From assembly GCA_965206845.1 (NCBI GenBank), contig OZ242221.1, positions 800,001-864,000 on the forward strand: a stretch of DNA of 64,000 nucleotides. Reading direction: 5' to 3'. The position numbers and the translations under genes were made by a program. The notes under the pieces are model-generated. The model saw only the letters and a program-made list of their open reading frames with translations. It had not been told where the DNA came from and did not search any database. How positions within the stretch are numbered: position 1 is the stretch's first letter; the number at the start of each line of letters is the position of its first letter. Shown piece after piece: positions 14,584 to 48,299 of this stretch. Source of the stretch: Cenarchaeum sp. (GTDB lineage Archaea; Thermoproteota; Nitrososphaeria; Nitrososphaerales; Nitrosopumilaceae).

Positions 14584-15045
14584 TTAATTATATTCCAGCT
14601 GGCTTACGTCCAGCGTGCGTCGGCAGTACCTGCACTTGAGGATCACACCCTCCCTGTCCACCACATCCATCACGGATTCGATGTGCTCCCGGCTGTTTGT
14701 GATGCAGCCAGGGTTCGAGCACCGGAATATGCGGCCTATCTCGTTTGGCAGCGATACCCTGCGCTTCTCCACAAGCTTGTAGTTCTTGATGATGTTGACC
14801 GTGGCCGAGGGCGCGATTATCGCAAGCTTGTTGGTGTCGTCGCCTTGGAGAAACATGTTCTCGACCTTTATGATGTCCTTCTTTTTGAACTTCCCGCTGG
14901 GCACGTTGAGCGCAACGGTGATCAGGCTGCCGTCCAGGCCGTCAACGCCCAGCGCGTCCAGTACCTGAAGGCCCCTGCTCGCATCTATGTGATCGATCAC
15001 GGTACCATCGCGAATCCTCCTGACTATCAGCTCCGACTCCTGCAT
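14584..15045 (-). CDS. pyrI: Aspartate carbamoyltransferase regulatory chain
   Basis: IRDGTVIDHI, KKDIIKVE, CSNPGCITN and CRYC Zn ligands. Start could be 15051. Confidence 0.97.
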   Translation of the reverse strand: MQESELIVRRIRDGTVIDHIDASRGLQVLDALGVDGLDGSLITVALNVPSGKFKKKDIIKVENMFLQGDDTNKLAIIAPSATVNIIKNYKLVEKRRVSLPNEIGRIFRCSNPGCITNSREHIESVMDVVDREGVILKCRYCRRTLDVSQLEYN

Positions 15046-15086
15046 CAGCATAATTTGTATATTGTACTGGTATATATCCATGGGAT

Positions 15087-16016
15087 ATGGAGGAGTTTTT
15101 TCAGGAGGACGTGATCTCGATCCGGGACATGGACAGTGAAAAGCTGGAGAGGATCTTTGGTGCCACCGAGAAGATCCTGCGGATGCCGCCGGACTCGCGC
15201 CGGAAGATTACCCTGGGAAGGACACTGGGCTACCTGTTCTTTGAGCCAAGCACTAGGACGCGGCTGAGCTTTCAGGCCGCAATGGCAGCCACCGGCGGCA
15301 CGTCCCTGGGAATCGCCGATGTGACGTCATCGTCTACCCAGAAGGGCGAGAGCCTCGCAGATACGGTGAAGATCATGTCCATCTACTCTGATGTCCTCGT
15401 CCTGCGGCATCCAAGTGACGGCTCCAGCAGGTTTGCCGCCGAGGTCTCAGACAAGCCGGTCATAAACGGGGGAAGCGGCACCGAAGAGCACCCCACCCAG
15501 GCAATCCAGGATCTGTTTACCATCAAGAGGGAGAAGGGCAAGATCGACGGGCTGAACATCGGCATAGTGGGAGATCTCAAGTACGGAAGGACGGTCTACT
15601 CGCTGCTGTACGGGTTGGGAAACTATGACGTCAAGGTGCATCTGATATCCCCAGATTCGCTGCGAATCCGCTCCGACTCTGTCTATGAGATCAAAAAGCG
15701 GCTCTCGTTTACCGAGTCTGCCAGCCTGGAGGACGTGATCGACGATCTTGATGTGGTGTACGTTACAAGAATACAGAAGGAGCGGTTTCCCGACGAGGAG
15801 GAGTACCTCAAGGTCAGGGGGAGCTATGTGATCGGCCTAGACATGGTGAAGAGGATGAAGAGCGGTGCCATAATCATGCACCCGCTGCCTAGGCTTGATG
15901 AGATCTCCGCAGACATCGACCGCTCCCGGAACGCCAAGTACTTCAAGCAGGCAGAGTACGGCAAGTACACCAGGGCCGCCCTGCTGGGGCTGATCCTAAA
16001 CAAGAACGGCTTTTAG
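15087..16016 (+). CDS. pyrB: Aspartate carbamoyltransferase catalytic chain
   Basis: FFEPSTRTRLSF, HPTQ, GDLKYGRTV, RIQKER, MHPLP. Confidence 0.98.
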   Translation: MEEFFQEDVISIRDMDSEKLERIFGATEKILRMPPDSRRKITLGRTLGYLFFEPSTRTRLSFQAAMAATGGTSLGIADVTSSSTQKGESLADTVKIMSIYSDVLVLRHPSDGSSRFAAEVSDKPVINGGSGTEEHPTQAIQDLFTIKREKGKIDGLNIGIVGDLKYGRTVYSLLYGLGNYDVKVHLISPDSLRIRSDSVYEIKKRLSFTESASLEDVIDDLDVVYVTRIQKERFPDEEEYLKVRGSYVIGLDMVKRMKSGAIIMHPLPRLDEISADIDRSRNAKYFKQAEYGKYTRAALLGLILNKNGF

Positions 16017-37905: not shown

Positions 37906-39060
37906 ATGGAAGATGTCTGCGTCATTGGCGCAGGAAGCACAAAGTACGGCAAGCTGGAAGACAGCCTCGCCGACATTACAGTCCAGTCGTCTGCCAGCGC
38001 AATAGAGAGCGCCGGCATCGAGCCCAAGGAGATCAAGGCAGGGTACATCTCCAATGTTTTTGGCGTGGCCGACAAGCAGGTCCACCTGGGGCCCGTAGTG
38101 ATGAGCAATCTGGGCATCCCCGAGAGGCCTTCCCTGTCCATCGAGTCTGCATGCGGCAGCGGCTCGGTCTCGTTCAGGGAGGCATTTGCGAATGTGGCCG
38201 CCGGGTTTTATGATGCGGTTCTGGTTACCGGTGTTGAAAAGGTGACCCACACCGGAACAGAGTGGACCACGACCTACTTTTCATACTGCTCGGACTTCTT
38301 TTACGAGGGCCAGGCCGGAGCATCTTTTCCTGGACTGTTTGCGTCAATGGCCAGGGCATACCTTGCAGAGTTCGGGGCAACCGAGGAGGACTTTGCCATG
38401 GTCGCAGTAAAGAATCACGACAACGGACTGTTAAACCCAAAGGCCCACCTGCGGAAGAAGATAACCGTGGACGATGTGATGAGATCGCCCGTGGTGGCAA
38501 GCCCCCTCAAGCTTTACGACTGCTGCCCGTTCTCCGACGGCGCCAGCTCCGTCATACTCTGCAGCAAAAAGTTTGCCCAGGAGCACGGTGGCGACTACAT
38601 CAAGGTGACGGGCTCTGGCCGCGGAGGCTCGTCTGCCGCACTGCAGGGCCGTGAGCGCATAACCACGATACCCAGCACAAAGATTGCCGCCGATGCGGCC
38701 TACAAGATGGCGGGAATCACCCCCAGGGACATAGATTTTGCAGAGGTTCATGACTGCTTCACCATCGCCGAGGTGGTTGACAGCGAGGATCTGGGGTTCT
38801 TTGAAAAGGGCCAGGGATACCGTGCGGCACGGGAGAACCGGACCGCCCGGGATGGCGACATTCCGATTAACCCGTCCGGCGGCCTCAAGTCAAAGGGCCA
38901 CCCCATCGGCGCCACCGGCGTGGGCCAGGTGGTGGAGGTGTATGAGCAGCTGACCGGCAAGGCGGGCCAGCGGAACTTGAAGAACGTAAGCACCGGTCTG
39001 ACGCACAACTTTGGCGCCACCGGGGCAAGCTGCGCGGTTCACATATTTGAGAGCGTGTGA
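37906..39060 (+). CDS. Acetyl-CoA C-acetyltransferase (archaeal thiolase)
   Basis: ESACGSG, VKNH.N, DCCP.SDGA, EVHDCF, GGLKSKGHPIGATG. Confidence 0.95.
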   Translation: MEDVCVIGAGSTKYGKLEDSLADITVQSSASAIESAGIEPKEIKAGYISNVFGVADKQVHLGPVVMSNLGIPERPSLSIESACGSGSVSFREAFANVAAGFYDAVLVTGVEKVTHTGTEWTTTYFSYCSDFFYEGQAGASFPGLFASMARAYLAEFGATEEDFAMVAVKNHDNGLLNPKAHLRKKITVDDVMRSPVVASPLKLYDCCPFSDGASSVILCSKKFAQEHGGDYIKVTGSGRGGSSAALQGRERITTIPSTKIAADAAYKMAGITPRDIDFAEVHDCFTIAEVVDSEDLGFFEKGQGYRAARENRTARDGDIPINPSGGLKSKGHPIGATGVGQVVEVYEQLTGKAGQRNLKNVSTGLTHNFGATGASCAVHIFESV

Positions 39061-39061
39061 G

Positions 39062-39427
39062 ATGTCTGCAAAGAGAGAGTTCATAGAAGCCGTCAGAACC
39101 GGCAAGGTGCTGGCAAGGGGGTGCACCAGGTGCGGCCTTGTCCAGCTGGGCACCGTCTGCTTCTGCCAGGGCTGCGGCTCCCGGGGTTTTGGTGACGTGA
39201 CACTGGAGGGCCGTGGAACTGTTGTTACCTATACCATAATTACGGTCCCGCCCTCCGGCTTTGAAAAGTATGTCCCGTATGCGTGGGTGGTAATCAGGCT
39301 GGACGGCTCCGATCTCCGGATCTCGGGATTTATGGGAGGCATAGCAGAGCCGGAGAGCCTTCCCATTGGAGTCGGTGCAAGGATCACCGGCTTTGACGAA
39401 AGGGGCATAGTTCTAGAAAGGACGTAA
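39062..39427 (+). CDS. DUF35-type Zn-ribbon/OB-fold thiolase partner
   Basis: CTRCG..CQGCG, G.V.TYT...VPP..F...PY. Starts immediately after the thiolase. Confidence 0.92.
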   Translation: MSAKREFIEAVRTGKVLARGCTRCGLVQLGTVCFCQGCGSRGFGDVTLEGRGTVVTYTIITVPPSGFEKYVPYAWVVIRLDGSDLRISGFMGGIAEPESLPIGVGARITGFDERGIVLERT

Positions 39428-39589
39428 GGCGTGCCGGCAGCAGACAACTGCTGCCACACGGACGCGTACGTGGTCACCGGCCGCCCCGAACCAAGTGTGA
39501 AGACGTCCTGAAGCGCACGCACCGGTACCCAAGGTAGGGGAGACGGGGCATTCCGAAATCTTAATTATTCGGGCACGGTAGTATCAGCT

Positions 39590-39751
39590 GTGTCAGTCGA
39601 TGTAATCTGTGGAAAGTGTGGCAGCAAGATTACCAGCATGAAGACACTCAAGCCGATAAAGGAGTTAATGAACACGCATAAGGGCAAGTGCCCCTCCTGT
39701 GGACACGCCGTGTCGACGTCGGAGTTTACCTTGGATGTTCAGGACAGGTAG
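39590..39751 (+). CDS. 53-aa Zn-ribbon protein (below ORF-track cutoff)
   Basis: GTG..TAG gives MSVDVICGKCGSKITSMKTLKPIKELMNTHKGKCPSCGHAVSTSEFTLDVQDR. TATA-like CTTAATTA upstream. Confidence 0.75.
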   Translation: MSVDVICGKCGSKITSMKTLKPIKELMNTHKGKCPSCGHAVSTSEFTLDVQDR

Positions 39752-39810
39752 GGGAACCGGCAGGCGCCGGCCACTACGCGCACCCCCACATGCACAAAAG
39801 AGCGCAGGCG

Positions 39811-41826
39811 CTATTGAACGGCCGGCCTTATCTGTGGCCTGAAGAAGGAGAGTAGCTCCGAGGCCCTCTCAATGGCATTCCTGACCGCTTCGGGATCAGA
39901 CCCCCGGCCGAACTCCAAGTCTGTCACTAGCCCGCCGCCAAACATCTCTGCGAGCCTGCTGATCTCAAGGATGTCTTCGCTCTCTGCAGAGTACTCGCCC
40001 ATCCGGGAACCATCAAGGGAGGTGCCCGTGCTGTAGGCCGGGCCGTCGAGGATTTTTTGAAGTGCGGCCTTGCCGAACTTGTCACCGTCAAGGGATGCAA
40101 GTCTTGCCGCACCGTCGCTCTCCACCATGCAGATTCTAATGTCGTCACCGCTCGCCTTGCTGCCCTTCTTTGCCACATCTGACGCGGTATTGATCACGCC
40201 GCGCAGTATGTTGCGCCCGTCCTTGTTGTCTTCATACCCCAGAATCCCAAAGACCGCCTCGTGCAGTCCGATCAGGTTCAGCGTCATGGATACGCTTCCG
40301 TGCTGCATGTGCTGGGTGTTTTTTACAAGCAGGGGGTTCAGCCCTTTCCTGATCAAGTCTGTAACGTGCCTGCGCCGGATGGACATGGCCTCCAGCACCG
40401 GCTTCATCAGGATGACCAGGTTGGCCCTAAAGTACATCTCGTCCTTGTTGGATTCAAGAGCCAGTCTTGGCAGGTTGATGGAGATGGAACCCAGGTGAAC
40501 CGATGTGGGATCCTTACCCCTGGCAGCGCATGCAACCCCCCCGGCCGATGTCTGCCCCTTTACAAACGCAACATGCCCGCCGAGACAGATGATCTCTGCC
40601 AGCCTTTCAGACATGTCGGTGATGCCTGCCCTGTCATAATCTATGATGAGGCCGATCTTTGGGGATGCGGTGATCTCTGCGTATCTTTTGTACGCCTCCA
40701 GAATCGTGGAGGTAACCTCTGGACTCTCACCCATCACGAGCCGGAACGAGACGATGGCCGGCTTTTCATTATACCTTGAGACGGTGGATGCGGCCGCAAA
40801 CGCACAAGCCATCTTTTGCTCCACATCTGGGAGCATCCCGGCGTACTCTGAGAGCAGCGGAACGAGTCCGTCCATAACCACCTCCTGAGATGCCTCTTTG
40901 TTGGATAGGGAGATCGACATCGATATCAGTGAGGACAGTTCGTCCAGGTTTTTGGCCGCCGGCAGCCTGGAGACATCATGGAGCTTGTCGCCTATGTCGA
41001 TACCGTTCTCCACCAGCTTTCTCACATCGAAGAAGACTATGTCAGGCAGCAGGGACCAGAGTCCGGGATTTGTAATGTGCAGGTCCCCGGAGAGGTAGGC
41101 GTCGGCCACATCCTTGGAGAGGTTGTTCGTAAGCAGGAGCTCCGAATGAATGACCTGGCCTGCCCTCAGCAGCAGATCTTCTGTGCTGCCGCCGTCGGTG
41201 TAATCCACATTTGTCATCGTCTCCTGCACATCATAAACCGGGAGTCCCAGTCTGGCAAGCCTGCTCCGGTACTCCTCGTGGCCGTGCTCCAGAAGGACCG
41301 AGTTTACCATCTCCCGGATGAGCGAGCTGGTAAGATGTGTAGTCTGATACTTGTATATGCGGTTCTCCACCTCCTCCGTAATCTTCTGCGCCAGCTCCAG
41401 CGGAAGGCCCCCCTCCCGAACCAGGGACTGTGTTATCTTGTGCGAGTTGAACTCCTCAATGGACCAGCGGGACGTTCTGACGTACATCTTGCCCGCCTCG
41501 ATTATGGATCTCTCCTCGATCTGCCTTGCAAGGCTGAGAACGAGCTTGCCCAGATTGGTAATCGTGTACTTCTTCTCGGATTTGTTCAGTGCAACCAGGG
41601 ACTGCTTGAGCAGTTTTCTTAGGTGGTATGCAAACTTGCCGCTCTCCTTTTTTGACCTGAACCCGGCATGTGACTTTAGCTCCGAGTATGTGAGAGGGCC
41701 TTTGGAGTTTAGGATTCGTAGGATGTCGATTCTGTTGGGGCTTGCCATGACCGAGAAGATCATTTTTACGCGCTTGGAGGTAGAGCGGATTATTCCGCCC
41801 CTTCCGGGTGCTTCTGATGCCATCAC
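39811..41826 (-). CDS. ArsR-like HTH + ATP-cone + degenerate class III RNR (NrdD-like) fusion
   Basis: R..IL..L...GPLTYSEL..FAYHL..L, then VRTS...EEFN..KI..SL.RE (cone), SGDLHI and SINLPRLA. No C-terminal Zn site or RxxGY. Confidence 0.8.
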   Translation of the reverse strand: MMASEAPGRGGIIRSTSKRVKMIFSVMASPNRIDILRILNSKGPLTYSELKSHAGFRSKKESGKFAYHLRKLLKQSLVALNKSEKKYTITNLGKLVLSLARQIEERSIIEAGKMYVRTSRWSIEEFNSHKITQSLVREGGLPLELAQKITEEVENRIYKYQTTHLTSSLIREMVNSVLLEHGHEEYRSRLARLGLPVYDVQETMTNVDYTDGGSTEDLLLRAGQVIHSELLLTNNLSKDVADAYLSGDLHITNPGLWSLLPDIVFFDVRKLVENGIDIGDKLHDVSRLPAAKNLDELSSLISMSISLSNKEASQEVVMDGLVPLLSEYAGMLPDVEQKMACAFAAASTVSRYNEKPAIVSFRLVMGESPEVTSTILEAYKRYAEITASPKIGLIIDYDRAGITDMSERLAEIICLGGHVAFVKGQTSAGGVACAARGKDPTSVHLGSISINLPRLALESNKDEMYFRANLVILMKPVLEAMSIRRRHVTDLIRKGLNPLLVKNTQHMQHGSVSMTLNLIGLHEAVFGILGYEDNKDGRNILRGVINTASDVAKKGSKASGDDIRICMVESDGAARLASLDGDKFGKAALQKILDGPAYSTGTSLDGSRMGEYSAESEDILEISRLAEMFGGGLVTDLEFGRGSDPEAVRNAIERASELLSFFRPQIRPAVQ

Positions 41827-42415
41827 AGTCGCTCCCGGCAGCTGAACCCGGAGGCGGGGTAGATTACTCCGATCCTTCCGGATCGCGCCATCTCTTCAGA
41901 CTCCACGTGTCTGCTATGAATCATGGACTAATTTAAGATTATTACTTTGTCCCGGGCCTCTCTGGATCCGGCATGGCAGGTTTGGGAGGCTCCGTGGATC
42001 CCTGACCGGTGCCTGCCACATGACCCGGCCCGTGTGACCAATCCGGGGGCCGTCTGCAGGCCCTGCCTCCGCCCCATACGTCGATCATGCCGCCGCCCCC
42101 TTGCGTGCGATGCCGTCTAGGGCGCCCGTGGCCGACTCCCGTGGCATGGCCAACCGCGCCGCGGTGCGGCCGCCTGCGCCTGCAGATCTCGCGCTTGAAC
42201 CCGCGGGCGTCCAACCCCATGTCGTTTCACGCGTCCATACTGTCTTGCGCATGGGCTGTCACAGGCCCGAAATCCCTCTGTCCTGCGATGCCCGTTTTTT
42301 GCACCATTATACGATGCAGCATAAAGATTTTGACGTATGCGGGAACAGAATATCTGGTTTTTTGATTGAATCGGGGGCTGGTTTTGGACGGCCTAGACGG
42401 CGCTGTGATCCAATC

Positions 42416-42439
42416 TGTCACACGAAAATCGTGTTGACA
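42416..42439. promoter_or_regulatory. Inverted repeat TGTCACACGA-AAA-TCGTGTTGACA upstream of nrdJ (candidate operator)
   Basis: Near-perfect palindrome about 110 nt upstream of the nrdJ start in an AT-rich tract. Confidence 0.45.
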
Positions 42440-42547
42440 ATGTCGTAATTCATATCTGAACACAAAAATAACATCCAGGTACGAGCTCAAACAGACGTAA
42501 AACGTATTCAAAATCTTAATTAACACATTTGTTTACGTCTTAGTTAC

Positions 42548-45199
42548 TTGTTGAACTCACAAACTAATGAACCAACCATACTCTCAGTTCGAAAGCGTGA
42601 CGGCAGTGTCATGGGGTTCGACCAAGAGAAGATATCAAACGCCATCTACAAGGCAATGTTTGCCACATCCAACCCCGACCGCGGCGTGGCCGAGCAGCTG
42701 ACAAAGCATGTCGTGGAGAAGCTCATGCAGCAGGGGTTCTCGGCCGATCGGCCGCCCAGCGTCGAGACCATTCAGGACATGGTAGAGACCACACTGATCG
42801 AGCGGGGACACAGCGAGATCGCCAAGGCCTACATTCTGTACCGGCACGAACGAAGGAAGGTAAGGGAAGAGAAGATGAGGATCCTCAACACAAAGGATCT
42901 TGATCCCGTGGCAAAAAGATTCGACACCAACTCCCTGCGCGTCCTTGCCTCCAGGTACCTTCTAAGAAACAACAAGAACGAGATCGTCGAGGGCCCGGAG
43001 GAGATGTTTAAGAGGGTTGCAACGCTTGTTGCCATCGGCGATCTCATATACAGCCAGCAGATATTCACAATAAATGGCAACCAGAAGCAGAGTATCAAGG
43101 AGGCCCAGGCGTATCTTGAAAAACTGGACGACTTTGACTACAAGCTCAGGATTGGCAATTACTACCTCAACAAGTTTCACCTGCGGTCCCTAATCAACTG
43201 CTACGTATACCTTGCCCGCGGCGGACACATGACCAAGAGCTTCAAGGAGCTGATGAGGATGATCGCCGCCAAGAAGTTTAACAGCTATGCTGAGAAGATA
43301 GACGAGTACTTTAAGCTGATGGCCTACCAGGACTTTCTGCCAAACTCCCCAACGATGATGAATGCAGGAGCCCGGCTGGGGCAGCTCTCTGCGTGCTTTG
43401 TGCTGGACATGCCCGATGACATGGGGGGAATTATGAAGACCACGTCCGACGCGGCCATGATCTTCAAGTCCGGCGGCGGAGTCGGAATCAACTACTCTGG
43501 CCTGCGCCAGGAAGGCGACATAGTCGCATCCACGTCTGGTGTGGCATCGGGTCCCGTATCGTTCATGAATATAATAAATTCTGTGACCGAGGTGGTAAAG
43601 CAGGGCGGAAAACGGCGCGGCGCGAACATGGGAATCATGGAGGTGTGGCACCCGGATATTGAAAAGTTTGTCACCAACAAGACCGAGCCCGGCATTCTTG
43701 AGAACTTTAACGTCAGCGTGGGACTCTGGGAGGACTTTTGGGATACGCTGCTCAACACGCGCGAGGGCAAGTATGCGCTTCGCTCCCCGCGTGACAGGAG
43801 CCCCGTCAAGGAGGTAAACGCCCGCCGCCTGATTGACCTGATTGCGCTGTCTGCGTGGAAGAGTGCAGAGCCCGGACTGATCTTCTTTGATCAGATCAAC
43901 CGGTACAACGTATTTGCAAAGGCAAGAGGGGGCCCGCTTCGCGCAACAAATCCCTGCGGAGAGCAGAGCCTGTATCCGTACGAATCCTGCAATCTGGGAT
44001 CCATCAATCTGGCAAACCTGGTGAAGAGAAAGGCCGACGGGGAGTACGAGTTTGACTGGCAGAGATACGAGGAGACCGTCAGAAAGACCACCAGGTTTCT
44101 GGACAGCGTAATAGATGTGAACCTCTACCCGGTGCCTGAGATTGACGCGGCGTCCAAGGAGTCCCGCAGGATCGGGCTGGGCGTGATGGGGGTGGCAGAC
44201 CTTCTCTACAAGCTACGCATACCGTACAACTCCGAGGAGGGATACGATCTGCAGAACAAGCTGGCCGAGGCACTGACGTACTATTCCATGGAGGAGAGTG
44301 TTGCCCTTGCCAAGGCCCGCGGCAGGTTTCCGCTGTGCCCGAAGACCGAGTACCCCGACGGGAAGATCCCGGTTGCCGGCTACTATGAGAAGCCAAAGGA
44401 GCAGCACAGGTACGAATGGGACACGCTCATAGACAGAATCAAGGAGCACGGAATCAGAAACGTGCTGACGACCACCGTTGCCCCCACCGGAACCCTTTCC
44501 ATGATCGCAAGCTGTTCAAACGGAATGGAGCCCACATTTGCCCTTGCCTATGAGAAGAGGGTGACCGTGGGCAAGTTCTTCTACGCCAACTCGATAATAA
44601 AACAGATGCTTGAGGAAGACAACCTGTACACCGATGAGATACTTGCAAAGATTGCAGACAACTACGGCTCCCTCAAGGGAATACCGGAGATTCCCGAGTG
44701 GATGCAGAAGATCTTTGTCACGGCAATAGACATTCACTGGTCGGACCATCTGATGGCACAGCAGGTGTGGCAGCAGTGGATAGGAAACGCGATAGCAAAG
44801 ACCATCAACATGCCACACGACGTACTGCCAGAGGATGTCGCAGCCGCATATCTTCTTGCACACGAGCTTGGGCTGAAGGGGATCACGGTCTACAGGGACG
44901 GTTCAAGGCACAAGCAGGTTCTGCACATAACCAACAAGAACACCGAGAAGAACTTTGATGTGGTGCCTTCGCAGGTGGTGACCGACTTTGTATCCCAGAA
45001 TATAACAAACCAGTACATGCGGGACCAGATAAACAACTCGCTGAAGATCAGGCCCGGCGAGGACATCATTGCGACTCACAATATCGCCGAAAGCGTACCC
45101 GAGGGAAGCCTGTGCCCTGAGTGCAAGAACAACCTCATCTTCGCCGAGGGCTGCAGCCTCTGCATCGAGTGCGGATACAGCCACTGCACGTCAGGATAG
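42548..45199 (+). CDS. nrdJ: Adenosylcobalamin-dependent (class II) ribonucleotide reductase with N-terminal ATP cone
   Basis: VRKRDG cone, PNSPT.MN, LSACFV, TNPCGEQ, APTGT and C-terminal CPEC..EGC..C..CGYS.C. Confidence 0.95.
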   Translation: MLNSQTNEPTILSVRKRDGSVMGFDQEKISNAIYKAMFATSNPDRGVAEQLTKHVVEKLMQQGFSADRPPSVETIQDMVETTLIERGHSEIAKAYILYRHERRKVREEKMRILNTKDLDPVAKRFDTNSLRVLASRYLLRNNKNEIVEGPEEMFKRVATLVAIGDLIYSQQIFTINGNQKQSIKEAQAYLEKLDDFDYKLRIGNYYLNKFHLRSLINCYVYLARGGHMTKSFKELMRMIAAKKFNSYAEKIDEYFKLMAYQDFLPNSPTMMNAGARLGQLSACFVLDMPDDMGGIMKTTSDAAMIFKSGGGVGINYSGLRQEGDIVASTSGVASGPVSFMNIINSVTEVVKQGGKRRGANMGIMEVWHPDIEKFVTNKTEPGILENFNVSVGLWEDFWDTLLNTREGKYALRSPRDRSPVKEVNARRLIDLIALSAWKSAEPGLIFFDQINRYNVFAKARGGPLRATNPCGEQSLYPYESCNLGSINLANLVKRKADGEYEFDWQRYEETVRKTTRFLDSVIDVNLYPVPEIDAASKESRRIGLGVMGVADLLYKLRIPYNSEEGYDLQNKLAEALTYYSMEESVALAKARGRFPLCPKTEYPDGKIPVAGYYEKPKEQHRYEWDTLIDRIKEHGIRNVLTTTVAPTGTLSMIASCSNGMEPTFALAYEKRVTVGKFFYANSIIKQMLEEDNLYTDEILAKIADNYGSLKGIPEIPEWMQKIFVTAIDIHWSDHLMAQQVWQQWIGNAIAKTINMPHDVLPEDVAAAYLLAHELGLKGITVYRDGSRHKQVLHITNKNTEKNFDVVPSQVVTDFVSQNITNQYMRDQINNSLKIRPGEDIIATHNIAESVPEGSLCPECKNNLIFAEGCSLCIECGYSHCTSG

Positions 45200-45294
45200 G
45201 CGTACACCATCAGATCCATGCCCGACATCACAAGCTATGCGGGCAACGAAAGGCCGGCATGGGCCGAGCTCAGGAATGACATCTCCGGGTAGCC

Positions 45295-45963
45295 TTGCTC
45301 TCCCTGATCTTTGCCGAGTCATCGCTGGAGCTGGTACCCAGGGAACTTCAGGCCCACCGCTCCGTGGTGTCGCACGCAAGAAGGCTGGGAAAGAGGCCCG
45401 GCGAGATCCTGCTTGATGTCTCCTGGCACTACGCGGCCATGCGTGGAATCAAAGACGGGATGAAGCGCGGCAGGCCCGACCTGATCCACATGTGCCTGCA
45501 GAATGCATGCAGCACGCCGCTGTACCTCAGGGGAGGCCTGACGATATACGTACACACCATATCAGGCAGGGTGATCACAGTTGGCAGCGGCATCCGCCTG
45601 CCAAAATCGTACCACCGCTTCGCGGGACTGATGGAGAGGCTTTTTCTGGACGGATCCGTCGAGCACGAGGGCAGGAGGATGCTGGATCTTGACACGATGA
45701 GCCTTGCAGAGGTGGTAGAAGAGATCCGGCCCGGCGCCATACTTGGGCTGTCAACCCTGGGCGACAGGATCCAGCTGCCACGACTGGCATCAGAACTGGC
45801 CGGAGGCTCGTGCGTAGTAATAGGCGGATTTCAGAGGGGGCACTTTGCCCCGCATGTGAGCAGCGTCATGGACGCGACGTACAGAATTGGCGACGACCCG
45901 CTTGAGGCCCATGTGGTCACGAGCCGGGTGCTCTACGAGTATGAAAAGACGGTTTTTATGTAG
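45295..45963 (+). CDS. nep1: 16S rRNA pseudouridine N1-methyltransferase Nep1
   Basis: LE.VP, LLD.S.H..AM, RGRPD..H, RLPK.Y.RF.GLM, IGGF..G.F. Confidence 0.92.
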   Translation: MLSLIFAESSLELVPRELQAHRSVVSHARRLGKRPGEILLDVSWHYAAMRGIKDGMKRGRPDLIHMCLQNACSTPLYLRGGLTIYVHTISGRVITVGSGIRLPKSYHRFAGLMERLFLDGSVEHEGRRMLDLDTMSLAEVVEEIRPGAILGLSTLGDRIQLPRLASELAGGSCVVIGGFQRGHFAPHVSSVMDATYRIGDDPLEAHVVTSRVLYEYEKTVFM

Positions 45964-45983
45964 CGCGCAAAACGGCTCCCTAG

Positions 45984-46056
45984 GCGGTCATAGTATAGCC
46001 TGGCAGTACGCTGGCCTTCCAAGCCCGTTACCCGGGTTCAAATCCCGGTGACCGCA
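45984..46056 (+). tRNA. tRNA-Gly (anticodon TCC), no intron, CCA not encoded
   Basis: GCGGTCA/TGACCGC acceptor stem, D arm with TGG, CT-TCC-AA loop and CCGGG-TTCAAAT-CCCGG T arm. Confidence 0.95.
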
Positions 46057-47268: not shown

Positions 47269-47616
47269 ATGCAATACTTTCAGGCGGTTCAGAAGGGACG
47301 GCAGATAGCGGCAGCGTCGCAGATGAGGCTCTTCAACGTAGCGGGCTTTGCCATGCTGACCCTTACCACAAAGAAGGTCGATGGCAAATTCATGCCGGTG
47401 GGAACAGAGGAGTATGCCGCGGTGATCAGGACCCGGGACGGGTTTGTTGCGATACTGGCCGACGAGGACGGCTACACCAAGGCACAGTCAAAGGCATTGG
47501 ACAAGAACGAGGCGTTTGAGATCCTTGACAAGCTGGTACTCTCCGGGATTCCGGAGTTTACGGGAGATGATGTGGAGATCTGGACCGAGCAGTACCCCAG
47601 GGTGCCCCGGGACTAG
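47269..47616 (+). CDS. Hypothetical protein
   Basis: [30 protein letters not shown]. Convergent overlap with the pyrH stop. Confidence 0.7.
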
Positions 47617-48299
47617 GAATCGCCGGGAAGAACTATCGTGGTACCGACCACGCTGCTGCGGATCGCCTTTTCCAGCGTCTTTATGTCGGCCCCGACTATC
47701 CGGGTTCTTATTCTGGAGCGCTCAATGGTCTTCAGGGATACGATATCCATAAGGTCGTGGCCGCCCGCCGCAGCCCCTTCCTGTATCAGCATCTCCTGCA
47801 GGCGCCCCAACTCGATCCGCCCGAGCATCTTCGCCTCCTTGTGTCTGTTGGGATCCATATCATACACGCCGTCCACATCCGTGGCGTTCAGGAATTCTGC
47901 TGCCCCGACCCTCTCGGCAACAAGCGCGGCGGTTCCGTTGGTGCTCTGGCCCGGATAGAGCCCGCCCGCCACCACCACGAGGCCGCCGTCTGCTGCCTGC
48001 TTTATCTCCTGCAGGGTTGTGGGTGGGTGCGGGTATGCCTTGTCTCCAAGTGCGCAGATCAGGAGCCTGGCGTTCAGTCTGGAGATCTCGATTCCCATCT
48101 CATCTAGCGTGGACTCGTCTGCGCCAGAAGATCTTGCATTGTTTATGTAGTGCCTTGCAATGCTGCCCCCGCCGGCCACTATAATGGGCTGACGGATCTT
48201 GCTGATCCTCAGCAGAAGCGACGCGTAGTCCTTCAGGATCCCGGCCCCGTCTGCACCAAAGACCTTGCCCGATAGTTTGATTACAATTCTCTTCCTCAT
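47613..48299 (-). CDS. pyrH: UMP kinase
   Basis: [34 protein letters not shown]. Confidence 0.95.

Follow-up and report, generated by a model that had tools for sequence, protein, structure and literature searches.

A gene beside nrdJ in the genome of Cenarchaeum sp. encodes a protein in which an ArsR-type DNA-binding head and an ATP-cone precede the core of NrdD, the oxygen-sensitive class III ribonucleotide reductase (RNR). The stretch of DNA that we analyzed, hereafter the window, comprises 64,000 nucleotides (positions 800,001 to 864,000 of contig OZ242221.1, assembly GCA_965206845.1), and all coordinates below are window positions unless the contig is named. This protein, which we call the regulator protein, appears to have lost all of its radical chemistry. 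With moderate confidence, we propose that it is a homodimeric DNA-binding transcription regulator of nucleotide-supply genes that was derived from a class III RNR and that acts here on nrdJ and on its own gene. The comparison of sequences lends good support to the view that this is a dead NrdD with an ArsR-type head, that its head and cone are strongly constrained, and that it is persistently linked to nucleotide synthesis; we infer binding to the spacer, regulation of nrdJ, sensing of deoxyribonucleoside triphosphates (dNTPs), the target genes, the ligand and the sign of regulation.

The two genes lie head to head across 721 bp. An initial annotation of this DNA, made from the letters alone, had described this arrangement with an intact nrdJ, and it holds with the following coordinates:

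39811..41826, minus strand: regulator gene, encoding the winged helix-turn-helix, ATP-cone and dead NrdD-like protein of 671 amino acids (open reading frame, domains and AlphaFold2 model; stop codon at 39811-39813)
41827..42547, no strand: divergent spacer of 721 bp between the regulator gene and nrdJ, both promoters presumably lying inside
42548..45199, plus strand: nrdJ, B12-dependent class II RNR of 883 amino acids, which has a canonical ATP-cone too (TIGR02504, 717 bits; cone, 83.9 bits)
41512..41760, minus strand: winged helix-turn-helix (wHTH) of the ArsR/SmtB type, residues 23-105 (HTH_20, DUF7347; conserved GKFAYHLRKL helix at residue 63)
41257..41487, minus strand: non-canonical ATP-cone, residues 114-190 (PF03477, 38.4 bits)
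39814..41241, minus strand: NrdD-fold core, residues 196-671, with a predicted dimerization surface (VIA-align Z of 30 to T4 NrdD; residue losses; homodimer model)

The open reading frame (ORF) of the regulator gene starts with GTG. An ATG one codon later would give a form of 670 amino acids, to which a protein in the database is identical.

Domain architecture and fold

The initial annotation had read the protein as an N-terminal ArsR-like wHTH followed by an ATP-cone and an NrdD-like barrel, a reading that the Pfam scores, the predicted fold and the structure matches all bear out. Residues 23-97 matched the Pfam models HTH_20 (32.1 bits; cut-off, 27) and DUF7347 (43.6 bits). The ATP-cone model PF03477 matched residues 114-186 over positions 1-75 of its 88 (38.4 bits against a gathering threshold of 25.8; 41.3 bits in the genome scan), and NRDD matched residues 443-653 over positions 277-492 of its 562 (60.8 bits). 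The wHTH scored 24.8 bits with the NCBIfam metalloregulator model, below the cut-off of 55, and the first 95 positions of a profile of the protein family matched the structures of NolR, HlyU and ArsR (6e-5 to 2e-3). The TIGR02487 equivalog model for NrdD gave 57.6 bits, which does not reach its cut-off of 326.35. The sequence motifs named earlier were located at residues 246 (SGDLHI), 449 (SINLPRLA) and 518 (L.GL.EA, present as LIGLHEA).

An AlphaFold2 model of the regulator protein, built on 108 relatives, had a predicted local distance difference test score (pLDDT) of 92.8 and a predicted template modeling score of 0.86. The top Foldseek matches of this model were all NrdDs (4.6e-20 to 5e-13); class I R1 came next, with about 1e-7. 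VIA-align superposed it on T4 NrdD (1h78) with a Z of 30.1 and a root-mean-square deviation (rmsd) of 2.9 A over 432 residues, and class I and II RNRs and other glycyl-radical enzymes gave Z values of 18-21, well under that of T4 NrdD. According to the model, then, the regulator protein has the barrel fold of NrdD.

Loss of catalytic residues and RNR inventory of the genome

The residues described for active NrdDs include the thiyl-radical Cys400 of the finger loop and Gly697 in StNrdD (PMC12662201), and the corresponding finger-loop Cys416, Cys171, Asn435, Gly711, Tyr712, Glu581, HxHD at 157-160 and NxN at 114-116 in PcNrdD (PMC11226230). We aligned 108 members of the protein family with 13 genuine NrdDs of the same phylum. 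The finger-loop Cys-Cys, invariant in the 13 genuine NrdDs, was found in none of the 108 members (A428 and G429 in the window protein). Also missing from all 108 were the first-strand Cys after the HxH motif (PcNrdD Cys171; I263 in the window protein), the second His of HxH (T252) and the Tyr after the radical Gly, which falls in a region absent from the window protein. The Glu of TPAE was kept in 20 of 108 members (S570 in the window protein). The family showed nothing resembling the E-N-x-N that forms the NxN flap of genuine NrdDs, and no R..G[YF] glycyl-radical motif was present in the window protein, whose end (...FFRPQIRPAVQ) precedes that region. Residues retained in the family were the Asn of NLPR (106/108), Glu513 (90/108), Asp573 (97/108), Tyr609 (94/108), Gly166 and a Gly-Gly pair. 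We also considered Cys433 of the window protein, near the finger loop, as a displaced radical Cys, and rejected it because it is not conserved. The initial annotation had noted that this protein lacks the Cys after the GDLHI region, the MGCR finger and the C-terminal glycyl-radical RxxGY. All three absences were confirmed, and the loss of catalytic residues that it expected across orthologues was found in every member for both radical Cys, the second His and the Tyr.

The genome consists of one contig and is 99.99% complete. PF13597 had a single match genome-wide, the regulator gene, and the Gly_radical domain PF01228 had no match in the genome. No NrdG scored above the cut-off genome-wide (best scores, 47.8 bits against 131 for NrdG2 and 28.3 against 126 for NrdG); the best radical-SAM protein was rejected as an NrdG, its highest score being that for QueE. 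Thus, the earlier remark that no nrdG lies nearby extends to the whole genome, and neither a separate glycyl-radical domain nor NrdG, which had been named together as contrary evidence, was found there. Because the radical Cys, the second His, the NxN flap, the glycyl-radical domain and NrdG are all missing, we conclude that the regulator protein is almost certainly catalytically dead as an RNR.

PF02867 matched only nrdJ, and PF00268 had no match in the genome; with the NrdD-like protein dead, nrdJ is therefore the only RNR of the genome. Only two ATP-cones were found, in the regulator protein and in NrdJ, and the genome therefore has no NrdR. An archaeal AmoA is present, so the host is an ammonia oxidizer, as the initial annotation had assumed.

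Conservation of the head, the cone and the barrel

Relatives were grouped as close (n=8), middle (n=24) and distant (n=75), and comparison of the window protein with each group gave the following identities:

wHTH: 91% (close), 73% (middle), 37% (distant)
ATP-cone: 85%, 64%, 47%
linker and first core helices: 64%, 42%, 34%
barrel: 49-50%, 26-32%, 14-19%

The nrdJ product was 72-76% identical to those of three of the same relatives. The head and the cone of the regulator protein are far more conserved than its barrel, which is the reverse of what is seen in an enzyme and indicates that the function resides in the cone and the DNA-binding head. We consider that the protein probably binds DNA.

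These values also bear on the possibility that the protein is still an enzyme acting on nucleotides, by non-radical chemistry or with another radical source. The barrel fold is intact, and the Asn of NLPR (106/108), Glu513 (90/108), Asp573 (97/108) and Tyr609 (94/108) are kept. However, all radical residues and the substrate motifs (NxN and the second His of HxHD) are lost, the Glu of TPAE survives in only 20 of 108 members, the barrel is the least conserved part and the genome holds no activase. Residual enzyme activity is therefore improbable.

The cone was compared with that of NrdR, in which V48, K50, R51, E56 and K62 are reported to contact the nucleotide, K50 and R51 binding the phosphates, and in which mutation of V48, K50, E56 or K62 impaired nucleotide binding (PMC9110341). 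By motif register, the corresponding residues of the window cone are V116, T118, S119, E124 and K130, so that three of the five contacts are kept. These include the adenine-reading Glu (E124) and the outer Lys (K130); F126 is also kept. At these two positions Thr and Ser each predominate, in at least 60% of the family.

Modeled as two copies, the core (residues 196-671) gave a homodimer prediction of 0.62 (median of three runs), and the best of three controls gave 0.00. Of proteins solved as homodimers, 20 of 30 reached the mark used for such predictions, and of those solved as monomers, 1 of 23. The runs shared at least 85% of their contacts, with a partner pLDDT of at least 83, and the predicted interface comprised residues 209-227, 281-311, 337-356, 382-390 and 491-498. 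The core is thus predicted to form an NrdD-like homodimer, although the pass may reflect only its likeness to solved NrdD dimers.

Distribution and origin of the family

A word-indexed protein search returned 4171 proteins at E<=0.001 among 8000 scored, and the best 120 of those all carry the four Pfam domains. The source names of some are 'anaerobic ribonucleoside-triphosphate reductase', 'helix-turn-helix domain-containing protein' and 'ArsR family transcriptional regulator'. The initial annotation had foreseen that pipelines would mislabel the protein as an anaerobic RNR, and the first of these names, borne publicly by orthologues, shows that they do. The label suggests, wrongly, that obligately aerobic ammonia oxidizers make dNTPs anaerobically, and it can mislead metabolic reconstructions.

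An exhaustive search of a representative library yielded 1013 clusters (50% identity), of which 159 reached E<=1e-30. Among 301 sampled genomes of the phylum, 224 had a match at E<=1e-5, the weakest of which may be genuine NrdDs, and 153 had a genuine NrdD above the cut-off. In the window's taxonomic family, the gene was present with an intact frame in all 43 genomes; nine matches to the NrdD model in this taxonomic family were the regulator protein itself, with E-values of about 1e-21 and scores well short of the cut-off. Within the phylum, several genuine nrdD genes lie in open frames of 1130-1682 amino acids (genomes G041, G095, G104, G009 and G049) whose match to the NrdD model begins only at position 57 or 150, which suggests inteins or fusions.

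We constructed a FastTree phylogeny of the core from 140 sequences, consisting of 118 family members and 22 genuine NrdDs. The two groups were split with a support of 1.0, and because all 118 members separate from the genuine NrdDs in this way, a single origin of the family is indicated. When rooted on canonical NrdDs, the family formed one clade (0.88), and its sister group consisted of nine genuine NrdDs whose genes adjoin family genes. One of these nine (L047) was checked and has the same cone subtype, VRRTDG...PLIREMVN.

The window protein contains four Cys, no CxxC and no Zn-ribbon cysteines. Two CxxC pairs were found in the last 110 residues of 89 of 118 family members. In the core-region tree, the window protein groups with two proteins of 659-671 amino acids, which likewise end before the ribbon; the next clade, of the Nitrosopumilus type, has 697-723 amino acids and ends in ...CGxCGFKD...CPxCKSPY. 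No paired CxxC that could be a remnant of the ribbon was found in the three frames 3' of the window stop codon. The missing CxxC Zn site of the initial annotation therefore stands for the window protein and its two nearest relatives, but not as a trait of the family. As far as the compared sequences go, the Zn ribbon has been lost only in this small lineage, and the glycyl-radical domain is missing throughout the family.

The loss of a ribbon that most relatives keep might be taken as a sign that the protein is a decaying, functionless relic of an anaerobic ancestor. However, an intact frame is found in 43 of 43 genomes of the taxonomic family and across hundreds of clusters, close relatives share 91% identity in the wHTH, the structural model is confident and RNA-library contigs lie on the gene. 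A relic is very unlikely.

Gene neighborhoods

In 27 of 29 other loci fetched from the window's taxonomic family, nrdJ lies directly downstream of the regulator gene on the same strand, about 200-230 bp away. Of the remaining two loci, one is at a contig end and the other has nrdJ 4.9 kb away in divergent orientation. Coordinates read by eye added 12 more tandem pairs, giving 39 of the 43 genomes, and three are at contig ends. Hence the synteny with nrdJ that the initial annotation had named for checking persists as linkage in related genomes, but the divergent layout does not, the usual one being tandem. Given the tandem layout in 39 of 43 relatives, we regard the divergent layout of the window as a local inversion rather than the norm of the family. 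The regulator protein of the only other genome of the genus (G301) is 52% identical to that of the window, and its nrdJ product 76%. The 52% within the genus is lower than the 60-65% found with other genera, which points to fast evolution or to a loose grouping of the genus.

We also examined 106 loci from 25 other taxonomic families with probes for nrdJ, genuine NrdD, PyrB and PyrI, counting a gene within 1.1 kb as a neighbor. The immediate neighbor was nrdJ in 3 loci, nrdD in 10, pyrB in 38 and pyrI in 27, so that at least one of the four was a neighbor in 65 of 106 loci and in 17 of 25 taxonomic families. One further nrdD neighbor (G264) was under the probe threshold and is adjacent by coordinates, raising the count for nrdD to 11. 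The layouts in these taxonomic families varied: the gene preceded nrdD or nrdJ in tandem, diverged from pyrB across spacers of 130-360 bp, or converged with pyrB or pyrI; by Pfam, the neighbor clusters were OTCace_N with OTCace and PyrI with PyrI_C. These neighborhoods suggest a wider remit that covers pyrimidine synthesis as well as ribonucleotide reduction.

In the window itself, pyrI (14584-15081, minus strand) and pyrB (15087-16016, plus strand) lie 25 kb from the regulator gene. These two genes face each other head to head, and just 5 bp separate their called start codons (15081 and 15087), so that either the promoters lie inside the coding sequence of the partner or the true starts are further in. 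An ORF of the amino-acid-kinase family resembling archaeal UMP kinase (47613-48299, minus strand) is located 2.4 kb 3' of nrdJ and represents a further nucleotide-metabolism gene near it.

Spacer, candidate operators and RNA evidence

The spacer is AT-rich at both ends and GC-rich in between. Its middle part (41940-42420) has about 59% GC and contains overlapping ORFs of 92-115 amino acids on both strands, one of which (42101-42448) was scanned and had no Pfam match; it may be debris of the inversion that turned the regulator gene around. An Rfam scan of 39000-46000 at E-values up to 1 gave two weak chance matches outside the spacer and no known RNA or riboswitch inside it. The candidate elements of the spacer are as follows:

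41928..41945, minus strand: putative TATA-like element of the regulator gene, resembling the block AAGTCTTAtTTAC conserved upstream of orthologues
41870..41885, no strand: perfect palindrome CGATCC-TTCC-GGATCG between the TATA-like element and the start codon, a weak candidate operator
42493..42540, no strand: inverted repeat AGACGTAAA/TTTACGTCT (42493-42501 and 42532-42540) directly before the nrdJ start, a candidate operator
42416..42439, no strand: imperfect palindrome TGTCACACG-AAAAT-CGTGTTGACA about 110 bp upstream of nrdJ, a candidate

The inverted repeat before nrdJ flanks a TATA-like CTTAATTAAC (42515-42524); it was recognized post hoc and is not conserved in relatives. The imperfect palindrome recalls an element of the relatives upstream of nrdJ, GTGTCAA-N5/6-TTGAC, with a different spacing.

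Other patterns were seen in the relatives. The 300 bp upstream of their regulator gene contain 19 GATC per kb and the spacer between this gene and nrdJ 15 per kb, compared with 4.7 per kb in coding sequence (about fourfold), often in AAAnTGATC(T/C)A words and in palindromes such as TGATCCA-GT-TGGATCA. In relatives of the Nitrosopumilus type, the conserved palindromes TATGAAnTTCATA and GTGTCAA-N5/6-TTGAC occur about 60-110 bp upstream of nrdJ, and both are followed downstream by a TATA box and a GGGGAGATTATA leader. As a regulon operator, TATGAAnTTCATA was rejected: five genomes had 1-3 sites each, the others being in or at unrelated genes, and no other intergenic site recurred. The word is absent from the window spacer, where an enrichment of GATC/GATCC was likewise rejected (7 GATC against 5.5 expected from the genome). 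The palindromes and the GATC excess of the relatives thus do not carry over to the GC-rich genome of the window.

RNA-library contigs 95-99% alike to the locus came from four sponge metatranscriptome runs of one study. They cover 39609-41894, that is, the regulator gene and at least 64 nt upstream of its start codon, including the palindrome at 41870-41885, and 42578-45254, that is, nrdJ. None lies on 41895-42577; contigs cannot show a lack of transcription, and this gap was not used as evidence.

Weighing regulation against other roles

Several results weigh against a nucleotide-dependent regulator of nrdJ. Concerning operators, the palindromes of the spacer were all found post hoc and none is conserved or enriched; GATCC-N4-GGATC, for instance, has 10 sites in the genome and is no commoner than other spacings. 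We also searched upstream of 105 family genes across the phylum for palindromes (half-sites of 4-5 nt, spacers of 0-12) and for 6-mers, comparing the counts per taxonomic family with those from block shuffles, and found only promoter-like words to be shared and no operator. One palindrome from this search, TTCA-N10-TGAA, was rejected, as its occurrence in 5 taxonomic families against 0.4 expected was not significant after about 3300 tests. Nor does the spacer share a 10-mer with the regions upstream of pyrBI, cdc6 and the UMP-kinase-like gene in the same genome. The RNA contigs, coming from one study, show presence and not transcript ends or levels. Concerning the neighborhoods, 41 of 106 loci have none of the four neighbors, including all 20 loci of one taxonomic family (f8, 0/20), many pyrB and pyrI neighbors are convergent and may represent inherited gene order instead of regulation, and the regulator gene and nrdJ of the other genome of the genus are on different contigs. 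Concerning the cone, the phosphate-binding Lys-Arg pair of NrdR is replaced by Thr118-Ser119, and the last helix (AKAYILYR in canonical cones) is shortened. The last two changes make ATP/dATP sensing doubtful, and we think it possible, but somewhat less than an even chance, that the cone senses adenine nucleotides.

That no operator was found would also fit an action at the protein level, with the dead NrdD dimer binding NrdJ, aspartate carbamoyltransferase (ATCase) or replication proteins to tune their activity or location, and with the wHTH serving only as a tether or a protein contact. It would agree with such a role that the neighbors are enzyme genes (nrdJ, nrdD, pyrB and pyrI), that pseudoenzymes often regulate active paralogues, and that the sister NrdDs adjoin family genes and share the cone subtype. 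However, conservation is highest in the wHTH, its putative recognition helix included, the gene persists in aerobes that lack an NrdD as partner, and NrdJ and ATCase have unrelated folds, so that one partner surface for both is unlikely. We therefore assign this role a small probability.

A DNA-binding protein with a function unrelated to nrdJ, in chromatin, replication or repair, would explain the 41 loci without such neighbors and the separate contigs in the sister genome of the genus, the adjacency to nucleotide genes being inherited synteny. Yet from lineage to lineage the class of neighbor (nrdJ, nrdD, pyrB or pyrI) and its orientation change, all within nucleotide synthesis. As for replication, the single orc1/cdc6 gene lies outside the window, and upstream of it (contig positions about 921804-922100) is an origin-recognition-box-like word, GTTCCAGAATGGAAA, which makes this region the probable site of the replication origin, some 80 kb from the regulator locus; as noted above, that upstream region has no 10-mer in common with the spacer. 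Such an unrelated function is unlikely.

Transcription regulation thus remains the explanation that we prefer, and control of nrdJ by the regulator protein is slightly favored. The proposal of the initial annotation, an enzyme scaffold repurposed as a nucleotide-sensing regulator, is upheld as to the dead NrdD, the wHTH, the cone, the conservation of the protein, the RNA-library contigs on its gene and the linkage to RNR genes of two classes; the linkage further extends to pyrB/pyrI. Nucleotide sensing and operator binding are less secure, considering that no convincing operator was found, that the cone carries Thr-Ser and that NxN and HxHD are gone.

Proposed mechanism and significance

In the mechanism that we propose, the NrdD-type core, its chemistry lost, would serve mainly as a dimeric scaffold holding two N-terminal ArsR-type winged helices, which would bind an operator. 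The ATP-cone and the linker between heads and core would form the effector-sensing part, albeit with a non-canonical cone, and nucleotide binding might reposition the heads, much as cones move in active NrdD. In the genome of the window, the likely targets would be nrdJ and the regulator gene itself, through the shared 721-bp spacer; across the family, they appear to include nrdD and pyrB/pyrI.

More tentatively, and rather as a conjecture than as a conclusion, the family could be the master regulator of nucleotide supply that is missing in archaea, an ancient transcription factor that arose out of a class III RNR. In this scenario, one duplication of an NrdD with an ATP-cone would have gained a winged helix and lost all chemistry, and the re-wired cone on an NrdD-type dimer would couple a nucleotide signal to how RNR genes and pyrBI are transcribed. 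The RNR target would then depend on the lineage, being nrdD in anaerobes and nrdJ in aerobes. If this speculation is true, the family would be a functional counterpart of bacterial NrdR that was reached by a completely different route.

To our knowledge, the control of RNR genes and dNTP supply in archaea is largely unknown. A widespread RNR-derived DNA-binding protein beside nrdJ, nrdD and pyrBI makes this question directly testable, and it would be a clear case of an enzyme scaffold turned regulator. Our literature search, which left subscription journals and supplements outside its reach, found no description of an HTH, ATP-cone and NrdD-like protein or of a dead NrdD in ammonia oxidizers.

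Comparison with known systems

The closest structural comparison is with NrdD itself. The structures from T4, T. maritima, P. copri and S. thermophilus share the ten-stranded barrel (Z 24-30, rmsd of about 2.9 A, about 430 residues), and the likeness extends to the N-terminal ATP-cone followed by a linker, the Asn of NLPR and several structural Gly, Asp and Tyr, the predicted dimer and, in most family members, the Zn ribbon. In contrast to NrdD, the regulator protein has no thiyl-radical Cys, first-strand Cys, glycyl-radical domain, NxN flap or complete HxHD, and it carries an extra N-terminal wHTH; the window protein also has no Zn ribbon and no NrdG partner.

The ArsR/SmtB repressors NolR, HlyU and ArsR resemble the N-terminal domain, which matches HTH_20 and, through the family profile, their structures. 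They are small dimers of about 100-120 amino acids that sense metals or redox state through the same domain, whereas here about 570 additional residues would supply dimerization and sensing.

Another enzyme-derived transcription factor is NrtR, described as a Nudix-related regulator of NAD metabolism (PMC2330246). In both cases, an enzyme fold would be reused as an effector-sensing domain beside a winged-helix DNA-binding domain, and both are commonly annotated as enzymes. The fold and the pathway are different, and the ligand and operators of NrtR are known, whereas here there are only candidates.

Finally, NrdR is the RNR-specific repressor of bacteria and consists of a Zn-ribbon and an ATP-cone (PMC9110341, PMC12176259, PMC12051234); it is described as rare in archaea (PMC9110341). 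NrdR binds paired boxes upstream of RNR operons. Like NrdR, the regulator protein combines an ATP-cone with a DNA-binding domain, and its gene lies next to RNR genes; it would suit a nucleotide-dependent control of RNR transcription. The two differ in that NrdR has a Zn ribbon where a wHTH is found here, and about 150 amino acids compared with about 670 that include a whole dead enzyme. The cone here is also without the Lys-Arg pair, no repeat like the NrdR box was found, and the neighborhoods include pyrBI besides nrd genes. With these differences in mind, 'archaeal NrdR analogue' seems a fair functional analogy.

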